From the NCBI RefSeq assembly GCF_006345805.1, contig NC_043000.1:106392001-106456000 (forward strand): 64,000 nucleotides of DNA. The letters run 5' to 3'. Under the pieces are notes generated by a model. The model ran no database searches, was not told the DNA's origin, and saw nothing but the letters and a program-made list of their open reading frames with translations. Source of the DNA: Octopus sinensis (Eukaryota). Position 1 is the first letter of the stretch. Each line of letters opens with the position of its first letter. Shown one piece after another: positions 33,127 through 35,172 of the stretch. Position numbers and translations under genes: made by a program.

Positions 33127-33310
33127 ATATATAATAAATCTTTGAACAAGGTATATGCCACATAAACATGGCTAACCACTAAGGGTAGATGCTACTGTAG
33201 CTCGCAGCCCCAGGAGAACATCTTCTCCAGCCGGCCATTGACACACCTTCTGCGCCCCATCAGCACTTGCAAAGGGAAGCCATCCTTCCCATCGTCGACC
33301 CGATGCGATA

Positions 33311-33353
33311 CGCACGGACCTGGGCTTCTGGGTATTTACCCATCATCAGTGCA
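33311..33353 (-). ncRNA. Hammerhead-like motif, left arm, with GAAA box changed to GAAG
   Basis: Reverse complement reads tgca-CTGATGA-tgggt aaat accca-GAAG-cc ca gg-TC-cgtgcg, with a perfect 5-bp stem II. Confidence 0.55.
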
Positions 33354-33673
33354 CGACAATCACCGGTCCCCGATGCGCAGGGGTCCCAATGCAAATACAT
33401 ATATCCCCCCTCCAGCGATGAAAAGTCACCAATCTCGAAAAAGTGCAAACAAGCAACAATAAATCTCTGAACGAGGCATAAACAGTAGCTGCACAATATT
33501 TAAGTGGAAAATATACTTCACGTTGTCGTGCAGCTACTGTTTATACCTCGTTCAGAGACCTACCACTGCTTGTTTACACTTTTTCGAGATTAGTGACCCC
33601 CCATCACTGGAAAAAGGATATATGCACTTGCATTGGGACCCCCCCCCCCCGCATCGAAGACCGGTGACTGTCA

Positions 33674-33716
33674 TGCACTGACGATGGGCAAATATCCAGA
33701 AACCCAGGTTCGTGCG
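33674..33716 (+). ncRNA. Hammerhead-like motif, right arm
   Basis: tgca-CTGACGA-tggg caaata tcca-GAAA-cc ca gg-TT-cgtgcg. Stem I needs a 2-nt bulge. Confidence 0.55.
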
Positions 33717-35172
33717 TATCACATCAGGTCGACGATGGGAAGGACGGCTTCCCCTTGCAAACACTGATAGGGCACAGAAAATGTGTCAATAGCCAACTGG
33801 AGAAGATGCTCTCCTGGGGCTACAAGCCACAGCAGCATCCACCCTTAGTGGTTAGCCACATTTAAGTGGCAAATATACTTCACGTATATATATATATATA
33901 TATATTTAAAAATGTAGAGATAACACACGAGTATGTAGATATTTATGAAAAAGAACAAGAATGCTATTTTTTTTTAAAATTAGGTGCATTTAAATTTATA
34001 TAAATACAGTTTAAAAAATGCTTTTGTTTTACATGTTCTGGCTGTTTATAAAGCTTATCAAAAATATGTACTTAAATGAAATATGTAGAGAAAAAAATTA
34101 TTAATAATATATATATATATATATATAATCATCGTCATTTAACATCAATTGTTCATGCTGGCATGATATATATTTATTTTGTGTCTATGTATGAGTATAT
34201 ATGTGTAAATACGTATACTTATATTTGTAGGTATGTGTACAATATATATGTATATAATTACATTGTACTGATTGTGTTTGTATAGCTGCATATGCATTAT
34301 GATTCAGCATATATTAACAGTTGTTAGGTCCTGCATAAATTATTACTATTTACCCAGTGAACATGAGTCAGAAAGGGTTTAAACAACTTCTCAGTAATAT
34401 CATTTTAAAGTTTTCTAATAAAACATTTCACCCTTGGTTTACTTCAGTCTCTTTAAACTTTCTAAACTTGTCCAAAGAAGTTTTATTTACCCTGATCAAA
34501 GCAATTTTTTTTTCATTTTTACCTCTATGTGCAATTTTTCAGACAATAAAACAGTTCTTTTTCATTCAACAATTACCTCAAATATGCTGAGTGGTGACAG
34601 TGAATCATCAGCTTCTCTAAATATATAAATAAGTATAAATATATGAATAAGTATAAATATATAAATAAGTATCTCTAAGTATATAAATAAGTGCATATAA
34701 ATAAGTATTTGACTATTTAGTTAAGAAGTTCTCTTCTTGACTATGTAGTTTTGGGTTCAGTCCCACTGTATGGCACCTTGAGTAAATGCCTTCTATTATT
34801 TCCTGTATGTTCTTAGTGTTTATTGCTCCTGCACACCTGCCACACAACAAAGTCTGCTTTCTCTATTAACCTTCCTGTGACTCCACTGCATCTCTTGTGT
34901 GTCTATAGCTTGCACTAGGTACACTATATGGAATTTCCGTTCTTTTATTCTTTTACGTGTTTCAGTCATTTGACTGCAGCCATGCTGGATCACTGCCCTA
35001 AAGGGTCTTAGTTGAAGTAATTGACCCCAGGACTTATTCTTTGTAAGCCTAGTACTTATTCTATCGGTCTCTTTTGTTGAACCACTAGGTTATGGGGACA
35101 TAAACACACCAACATCAGTTGTCAAGCGATGTGGGGAGACAAACACAGACATAAAGACCCACGTATAAATAT

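Follow-up and report, generated by a model that had tools for sequence, protein, structure and literature searches.

An inverted pair of repeats in the genome of Octopus sinensis carries, in its DNA, the signature of RNA editing. Within the window (the whole analysed stretch of 64,000 nucleotides, positions 106,392,001 to 106,456,000 of NC_043000.1), the two arms of this fold-back differ almost entirely in one direction, and the same fold-back exists without these changes at a second locus. We interpret the window copy as a recent retrocopy of a read-through RNA that was hyper-edited by ADAR and whose unedited donor is still in the genome, a reading to which we assign a probability of about 0.87. 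The features discussed below are collected in Table 1.

Table 1. Positions in the window of the retrocopy, its parts and its junctions.
Feature	Position	Strand	Remarks
Whole retrocopy	32144..34107	-	Donor C4:75044430-75046800; RNA 5' end near 34107, 3' end at 32144
Left arm of fold-back (3' arm in RNA)	33152-33498	-	27/93 adenosines read G
Loop between arms	33499-33523		Same letters as donor
Right arm of fold-back (5' arm in RNA)	33524-33875	-	23/103 adenosines read G
Transduced donor flank, AT-rich repeat piece	33906..34107	-	Carries edits at 34038 and 34042
(TA)n tract at 5' junction	34108..34127		Together with ATAT at 32140-32143, points to a TA run as insertion site
Element X, unique 3' part (~490 bp) with SINE-like 3' end	32144..32637	-	38 siblings end here
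Element X, (GAT)6 3' tail	32144..32161	-	Copy stops here; donor runs on into other sequence
Element X, 5' tandem array, units of ~350-370 bp, (TAA)n tracts	32638..33136	-	Unedited
Type I hammerhead-like motif (CUGAUGA, short stem, GAAA edited to GAAG, GUC)	33311..33356	-	Decayed in donor
Second hammerhead-like motif copy	33671..33716	+	Opposite strand

Results

Divergence of the fold-back arms

Aligned with one another, the arms show 57 mismatches in 347 columns. Polar mismatches account for 51 of these, with C in the left arm and T in the reverse complement of the right arm at 27 positions and A against G at 24; the rest are three changes in the opposite direction and three transversions, two at the outer end and one at a poly-C indel. 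A hand count in the first-pass annotation (about 52 differences, divided 49, 2 and 1) had come close to these figures, and the runs of changes that it quoted are all present in the sequence. On the minus strand every polar mismatch is a G-U pair, and in energy folds the minus-strand arms form a near-unbroken duplex of -636.6 kcal/mol, versus -496.0 for the plus strand. In the right arm, two C runs joined by one edit make up a single run at 33639-33650 that is five bases longer than the donor's.

The one-strand bias of these mismatches (binomial p = 6e-11) is the strongest among 81 testable inverted pairs, that is, pairs with at least eight transition mismatches, in 646,606 bases from 93 partly overlapping sequences comprising the window, the donor region, random stretches and family loci. 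The next best pairs in this set, 8652-9199 and 8867-9399 of the window, were rejected as off-register TA/CA microsatellites inside a 3-kb palindrome. A pair at locus L199 (10 versus 0 mismatches), the best of 13 in 233,102 bases from 50 loci, was likewise rejected as a TA/TG microsatellite. No second edited fold-back was found in the roughly 0.88 Mb scanned, which overlap in part and amount to ~0.03% of the genome. The window also contains a MITE-like inverted repeat (35173-35328 and 35630-35785; 156 bp, 7 mismatches, 301 bp apart) with too few mismatches for the editing test.

Donor locus and extent of the copy

A search of the 2.72-Gb genome located one unedited donor as the best match of both arms, so that a derivation of the arms from separate unedited subfamilies, raised beforehand as a check on the editing interpretation, does not describe them. 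The donor lies at 75.04 Mb of the window's own contig (C4), 31 Mb distant and inverted relative to the window, and contains the same fold-back with the same flanks. Over 1961 aligned columns the two loci differ by 59 substitutions, 52 of which are A>G on the window's minus strand. Two of the other seven fall in the junction TA run, two are produced by a shift of one base at the edge of a homopolymer, and the remaining three are ordinary; the copy is also one array unit shorter than the donor. With so few substitutions, the copy must be very recent. The arm itself is a high-copy repeat with 2821 candidates in the genome, and arm searches in which 40 of these were scored returned no further copy of this fold-back.

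The edited hairpin does lie at 33151..33885, where it was first described, but it forms only part of the larger copied segment 32144-34107. Upstream donor flank makes up about 970 bp of the copy in all, including 220 bp beyond the hairpin, and in the donor the AT-rich piece of this flank lies next to a broken ORF of Penelope-like type. With both junctions inside TA runs, a target-site duplication could not be resolved. The insertion is flanked by the end of a high-copy repeat at 31950-32140 (2437 candidates) and by a SINE-like 3' end at 34128-34170, the latter an older copy from the same family as the tail of element X. An origin of the copy through RNA, as had been proposed, is supported.

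Editing signature

Relative to the donor, every one of the 50 arm substitutions is A>G on the minus strand, and none is G>A. Both arms are affected on the same strand (Table 1), in agreement with the proposal that they were edited on one molecule. Edited adenosines amount to 50 of 196 in the duplex versus 2 of 200 in the aligned non-duplex part (Fisher p = 7e-15), and neither the loop nor the array of the carrier element is edited. The mismatch classes between the arms follow from these edits: 44 new and 7 old G-U pairs give the 51 polar mismatches, and 9 A-C mismatches less the 6 edited ones leave the 3 in the opposite direction.

The identity of the 5' neighbour has a strong effect, with edited fractions of 22/52 after A, 16/51 after U, 10/53 after C and 2/40 after G. 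A 5' G is thus depleted (2/40 versus 48/156 with other 5' neighbours, p = 4e-4) and a 5' U or A favoured (38/103 versus 12/93, p = 1e-4). At A-U pairs alone, G precedes 1 of 43 edited versus 36 of 143 unedited adenosines (p = 4e-4), and the depletion persists when the A-C sites and the poly-C site are left out. No preference for a 3' G was found (12/40 versus 38/156, p = 0.54). Edits are clustered, with 17 close pairs against 9.9 expected (p = 0.004). Adenosines opposite C are edited more often (6/9) than those opposite U (44/187; p = 0.009), and a preference for A-C mismatches is a feature of ADAR. The neighbour bias, already described as ADAR-like from inspection by eye, matches that of metazoan ADARs, which favour a 5' U or A and disfavour G, with a weaker effect of the 3' neighbour (PMC9989829, in the parts available). 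The host genome has 17 exon-level A_deamin (PF02137) matches above cut-off at several loci, a domain by which ADAR, ADAD and ADAT are not told apart. ADAR is the probable editing enzyme.

Polarity relative to the repeat family

When the arms are set against the majority base of 29 copies, taken from 27 other loci, the left one carries 24 T>C changes and the right one 21 of the same polarity. Each donor arm has one such change, and the 29 copies have at most five in either class; the 27 loci were picked by likeness to the edited arm, a choice that works against this result. One example is the change from GAAA to GAAG at 33325 in the left arm, cited earlier as an internal check of direction, where 29 of 29 family copies have T. 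For most sites these comparisons already refute the opposite polarity, whether as G>A change, APOBEC-like or from CpG decay, that struck the donor or the two arms, or as descent of the arms from two subfamilies, and we regard its overall probability as negligible. The A>G direction, expected from the outset, is borne out by a family majority that carries A/T rather than G/C at the edited sites.

What speaks for G>A change is that at seven of the 50 sites, namely the six A-C sites and 33246, the window has the same base as the family majority. Because the six A-C edits restore the family-majority base, some of them may be later mutations of the donor rather than edits. Decay at CpG would strike both strands, yet donor and copy differ at 6 of 9 A-C mismatches versus 0 of 7 G-U pairs (p = 0.011), and this strand asymmetry argues against donor mutation at most of those sites.

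No hyper-editing was found in the 29 other hairpin-family copies at 27 loci (40 of 2821 candidates scored). Copies of the 345-bp hairpin family (loci L001-L030) usually have beside them one end repeated as a short direct copy and the other end as an inverted copy of variable length, an arrangement by which many loci would form fold-backs and so offer possible ADAR substrates.

Two edits outside the hairpin

The changes at 34038 and 34042 are derived, family copies having T in 23 of 23 and 19 of 23 cases, respectively. In the donor, the AT-rich piece in which they lie has an inverted partner, 80% alike, at C4:75,041,751-75,041,925, ~2.5 kb upstream of the inserted 5' end, and in the pairing of the two pieces the edited sites flank a two-base mismatch. 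The window contains no inverted partner of the piece. Since the only partner found for these edits lies beyond the inserted part, the simplest reading, drawn from two sites only, is that the edited RNA would have been longer than the insertion. A broken ORF with a GIY-YIG match (E = 3e-4, under the Pfam cut-off) runs along the other strand of the donor between the AT-rich copies, and from its motifs we take it to be Penelope-like.

The carrier element

The 3' half of the copy belongs to an element, here termed X, whose 3' end we label SINE-like. Among 40 scored candidates, 38 are siblings of X with 94-99% identity and a common 3' end; the 5' starts of 27 of the 38 are scattered, while 11 reach the start of the query's X, and the three of these that were inspected continue upstream as longer arrays. 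The common 3' end and the scattered 5' starts establish, independently of the edits, which strand of X is the RNA: it is the window's minus strand, and this is also the strand that carries the edits. ATAT directly follows the tail in 6 of 10 inspected siblings and a TA tract stands at the 5' junction in 12 of 20 (5' flanks were surveyed for 20 of the 38 siblings, and short flanks for a further 10), and the window copy abuts TA runs at both ends.

In the donor, X lies within a TA run between two inverted hairpin-family fragments. Beyond it is a rearranged hairpin-family fragment (L035:6830-6943), which places the insertion of X in a small palindrome, at its TA centre. The tail of X terminates the copy, and the far fragment was left behind. 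A hairpin upstream of X occurs only in the donor and the window (40 candidates scored), and two variants of X common to donor and copy are absent from nine of ten siblings. The end at the tail of X, the hairpin-X pairing unique to the two loci and the two common variants identify the hairpin as a 5'-transduced flank. An initial suggestion that the fold-back is itself the mobile unit is accordingly not supported, as the copy extends ~1 kb into X to one side of the hairpin and 220 bp into donor flank to the other, and ends at the tail of X.

These boundaries also weigh on a related proposal, in which Penelope-like machinery acting on terminal repeats of the hairpin or its flank, rather than a LINE acting on X, inserted the edited RNA, with the fold-back as the mobile unit. 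The partial tandem and inverted end copies of the hairpin family give it a Penelope-like architecture and it has a hammerhead-like motif; the broken GIY-YIG ORF, just under the Pfam cut-off, adjoins the donor; and Penelope-like elements insert at AT-rich DNA (PMC11167929, available text). Against this, the 3' end falls exactly at the tail of X, the hairpin-family fragment that follows X stayed in the donor, the hairpin stands beside X nowhere else among the scored candidates, and the fold-back has no further copy in the arm searches. We judge insertion by Penelope-like machinery highly improbable, even though the partner LINE of X was not found: none of 14 reverse-transcriptase loci inspected, out of 150 listed PF00078 matches, shares the tail of X, and a provisional 'RTE' label for its machinery was dropped for this reason.

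The strand of X bears equally on a route through DNA, in which adenosines of a DNA or cDNA copy were deaminated, either by ADAR on an RNA:DNA hybrid or, in a DNA hairpin, by some unknown deaminase. In model hybrids, dA at A-C mismatches is open to editing by ADARs (PMC12925331, in the portion available), and A-C sites are enriched among the edits here. First-strand cDNA would be antisense to X, and editing there would appear as A>G on the opposite strand. A hybrid would span the whole copy, yet the edits stop at the duplex, with 2/200 outside; 44 edits fall at A-U pairs, the edits outside the duplex require a pairing partner that only the donor was found to contain, and the end of the copy coincides with the tail of X. 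Deamination in DNA is thus very unlikely, and editing of the RNA before its reverse transcription accounts for the pattern.

Several observations were made on X and on reverse transcriptases of the genome. Arrays of a dozen or more ~370-bp units of X occur at C11:14.90 Mb, C28:16.87 Mb and C18:3.27 Mb upstream of a unique tail and resemble a retroposed satellite, and a stretch within the unit may correspond to the C-terminal end of a non-LTR ORF. The best PF00078 matches (L132-L161) lie on unplaced contigs, many with identical scores, unlike those on the chromosome-sized contigs, and possibly represent a very young family or else foreign DNA that entered the assembly from another organism. A recently active family is suggested by several LINE copies (L162-L165, L168 and L170) that are nearly identical and have a (TTA)n tail and ORFs reaching ~950 residues.

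Sequencing-run contigs and the assembly

Contigs of four public runs (X1-X4) were compared with 31600-34700; none of the runs listed as containing the sequence was RNA. Runs X1 and X2, both gigabase-sized, are from one sample that is only guessed to be DNA and is perhaps the assembly's own source. In X1, an 89-base contig matches 33652-33740 without a difference, across the edited sites 33668 and 33689, and a 140-base contig has three differences, their letters unlisted, over 33348-33487, a stretch with 12 edited sites. A contig of X2 matches 33917-34055 exactly, including both outside edits, while at 33689 and 33301 the X2 contigs do not show the edited letter. Further contigs of X1, X2 and X4 agree with the donor form. 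Among the contigs listed, X3 and X4 have no edited piece, neither insertion junction is bridged and no empty allele occurs. The contigs are swamped by high-copy repeats, so that their depth is not readable as a share of cells. X1 contains 0.40 of sampled words and the donor alone would give 0.33, so this figure adds little.

The assembly could have taken up an RNA read or cDNA that had been edited, or an error of polishing, and the absence of a bridged junction among the listed contigs and the guessed DNA label of X1 and X2 leave room for this. So does a ~3-kb palindrome at 7531-10491, whose arms differ mostly by indels of one to a few bases, a type of difference that hints at assembly errors nearby. 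The palindrome, which has inverted pieces nested within it and a centre of long TA runs, reflects either a fold-back artefact of the assembly or an inverted duplication of very recent date, and as a suspect it indicates that the assembly is not error-free. A nanopore fold-back error was rejected as the source of the arm differences, as it would alter both arms symmetrically rather than one strand in both. Contigs of the gigabase-sized runs, moreover, hold edited letters together with donor-private variants, and the copy has ordinary substitutions of its own and a shorter array, and its junctions in TA runs are of the kind usual for siblings of X. Errors would presumably not track the RNA strand, the duplex limits and the 5' neighbour all together. 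An artefact is therefore very unlikely. The concern that raw data might fail to support the assembled arms is eased by the edited letters in contigs of a run listed as DNA, a label that is itself a guess, and presence of the copy in both the assembly and the contigs points to germ-line inheritance.

Hammerhead-like motif in the hairpin family

The minus strand of the family majority reads, in order, CUGACGA, a 4-bp stem, GAAA, an 8-base palindrome and GUC. It thus holds the core boxes CUGANGA and GAAA and an NUH site in order, whereas the window's left arm has GAAG. By eye, the 4-bp stem II is closed by C-A and stem I contains wobbles; the 8-nt stem III palindrome, present in the family majority, is broken in donor and window. 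Energy folds did not yield a hammerhead monomer, and no Rfam hammerhead was matched in the window, in six family loci (E up to 5) or in a 121-nt stretch (E up to 10). Of the hammerhead attributed to this hairpin, what stands is a plausible family-level motif, judged from its letters to be hammerhead-like only. Decay of the motif and its burial in the duplex would explain why the RNA remained uncut.

In core boxes and, by eye, in a putative short palindromic stem III the family resembles Penelope-like terminal repeats and retrozymes, as it does in opposite-strand motif pairs 100-700 bp apart and partial tandem end copies (available parts of PMC4209133, PMC11167929 and bioRxiv 10.64898/2026.07.22.740005). 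The type I or minimal hammerheads of Penelope-like repeats are active as dimers and paired on opposite strands, according to the available text of PMC4209133. The hairpin family differs from these systems in the C-A at the base of stem II, the lack of a linked ORF and the lack of an Rfam match.

Discussion

The sequence of events that we propose begins with a long read-through RNA from the plus strand of the donor (C4, 75.04 Mb), which would contain the fold-back first and then the adjacent young element X; a promoter is presumed. The two inverted copies of the 345-bp repeat would fold into a 347-bp RNA duplex, in which ADAR would deaminate about a quarter of the adenosines, on both arms, and two more adenosines may have been edited in a weaker duplex with the inverted repeat 2.5 kb further upstream. 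Insertion would then have proceeded by target-primed reverse transcription, a LINE-type reverse transcriptase using the (GAT)n tail of X for priming at a TA run 31 Mb from the donor and continuing through X, the edited hairpin and 220 bp of flank, with inosine read as G and an early stop producing the 5' truncation.

This route would be that of 5' transduction by non-LTR retrotransposons such as SVA and L1, in which upstream read-through RNA is copied with the 3'-anchored element to a new site and truncated at the 5' end; in the window, the transduced flank is in addition hyper-edited. Edited RNA is also reverse-transcribed, and its edited letters become genomic, in the retroprocessing of plant organelles and kinetoplastids. 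There, C-to-U editing or U insertion is involved and the gene is replaced in place, whereas the window holds A-to-I changes in a new nuclear insertion.

The APOBEC 'DNA-edited' LTR retroelements share with the proposed history of the window copy a deaminase acting on a retrotransposition intermediate and inherited, clustered, strand-biased changes, as well as detection through donor-copy pairs and consensus polarity (PMC4866542, available text). They differ in that G>A changes arise from deamination of C in cDNA, in LTR elements of vertebrates (same source). The window copy shows A>G on the RNA strand, within an RNA duplex and in a non-LTR transduction, and its arms contain no G>A change. In that APOBEC screen, 19 invertebrates were at noise level, and ADAR goes unmentioned in the main text (PMC4866542).

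The nearest ADAR precedent found is the A>G hypermutation of avian retroviruses (Rous-associated virus as well as avian leukosis virus), where ADAR-type hyperediting affects an inverted repeat of reverse-transcribed RNA and nearly half of the adenosines are changed (review PMC12925331, in part). These cases are viral, and the part of that review available to us reports no host transcript fixed in a genome assembly beside its unedited source. ADAR-hyper-edited inverted-repeat transcripts have the same long duplex, A>G clusters and 5' G depletion, and show a weak 3' preference, but their edits are found in RNA or cDNA versus the genome, whereas in the window copy the edited state is itself genomic (PMC9989829 and PMC2873906, available portions). 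The literature covered, which was mostly outside subscription journals and consisted of articles without their supplements, contained no inherited ADAR-edited retrocopy, and the accessible parts of PMC9148063, PMC4598827, PMC4384741 and PMC9115989 hold no precedent; A>G clusters may be listed in the supplementary tables of PMC4866542.

Reverse transcription of edited RNA has been proposed as a route from editing to DNA (review PMC10209271, available part). Feedback of this kind has been argued mostly from statistics, and the present locus offers a concrete case with an internal control, source and copy being in one genome. The copy is non-coding repeat DNA, and no functional claim is made for it. 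Further cases could be sought with a simple screen for donor-copy pairs, or for inverted arms with one-strand G-U divergence; earlier genome screens targeted G>A.

If the copy is inherited, ADAR would be active in cells that pass on insertions, and a hyper-edited 347-bp duplex would still be reverse-transcribable from end to end. We suggest, tentatively and as something rather less than an even chance, that this locus is one of many, that ADAR-edited read-through RNAs have been retrotransposed repeatedly in this repeat-rich genome and that A-to-I editing is a clustered, strand-biased source of inherited mutation. Were such cases numerous, each donor-copy pair would record the editing of one RNA molecule of the germ line or early embryo, including a part of the transcript that was never inserted.
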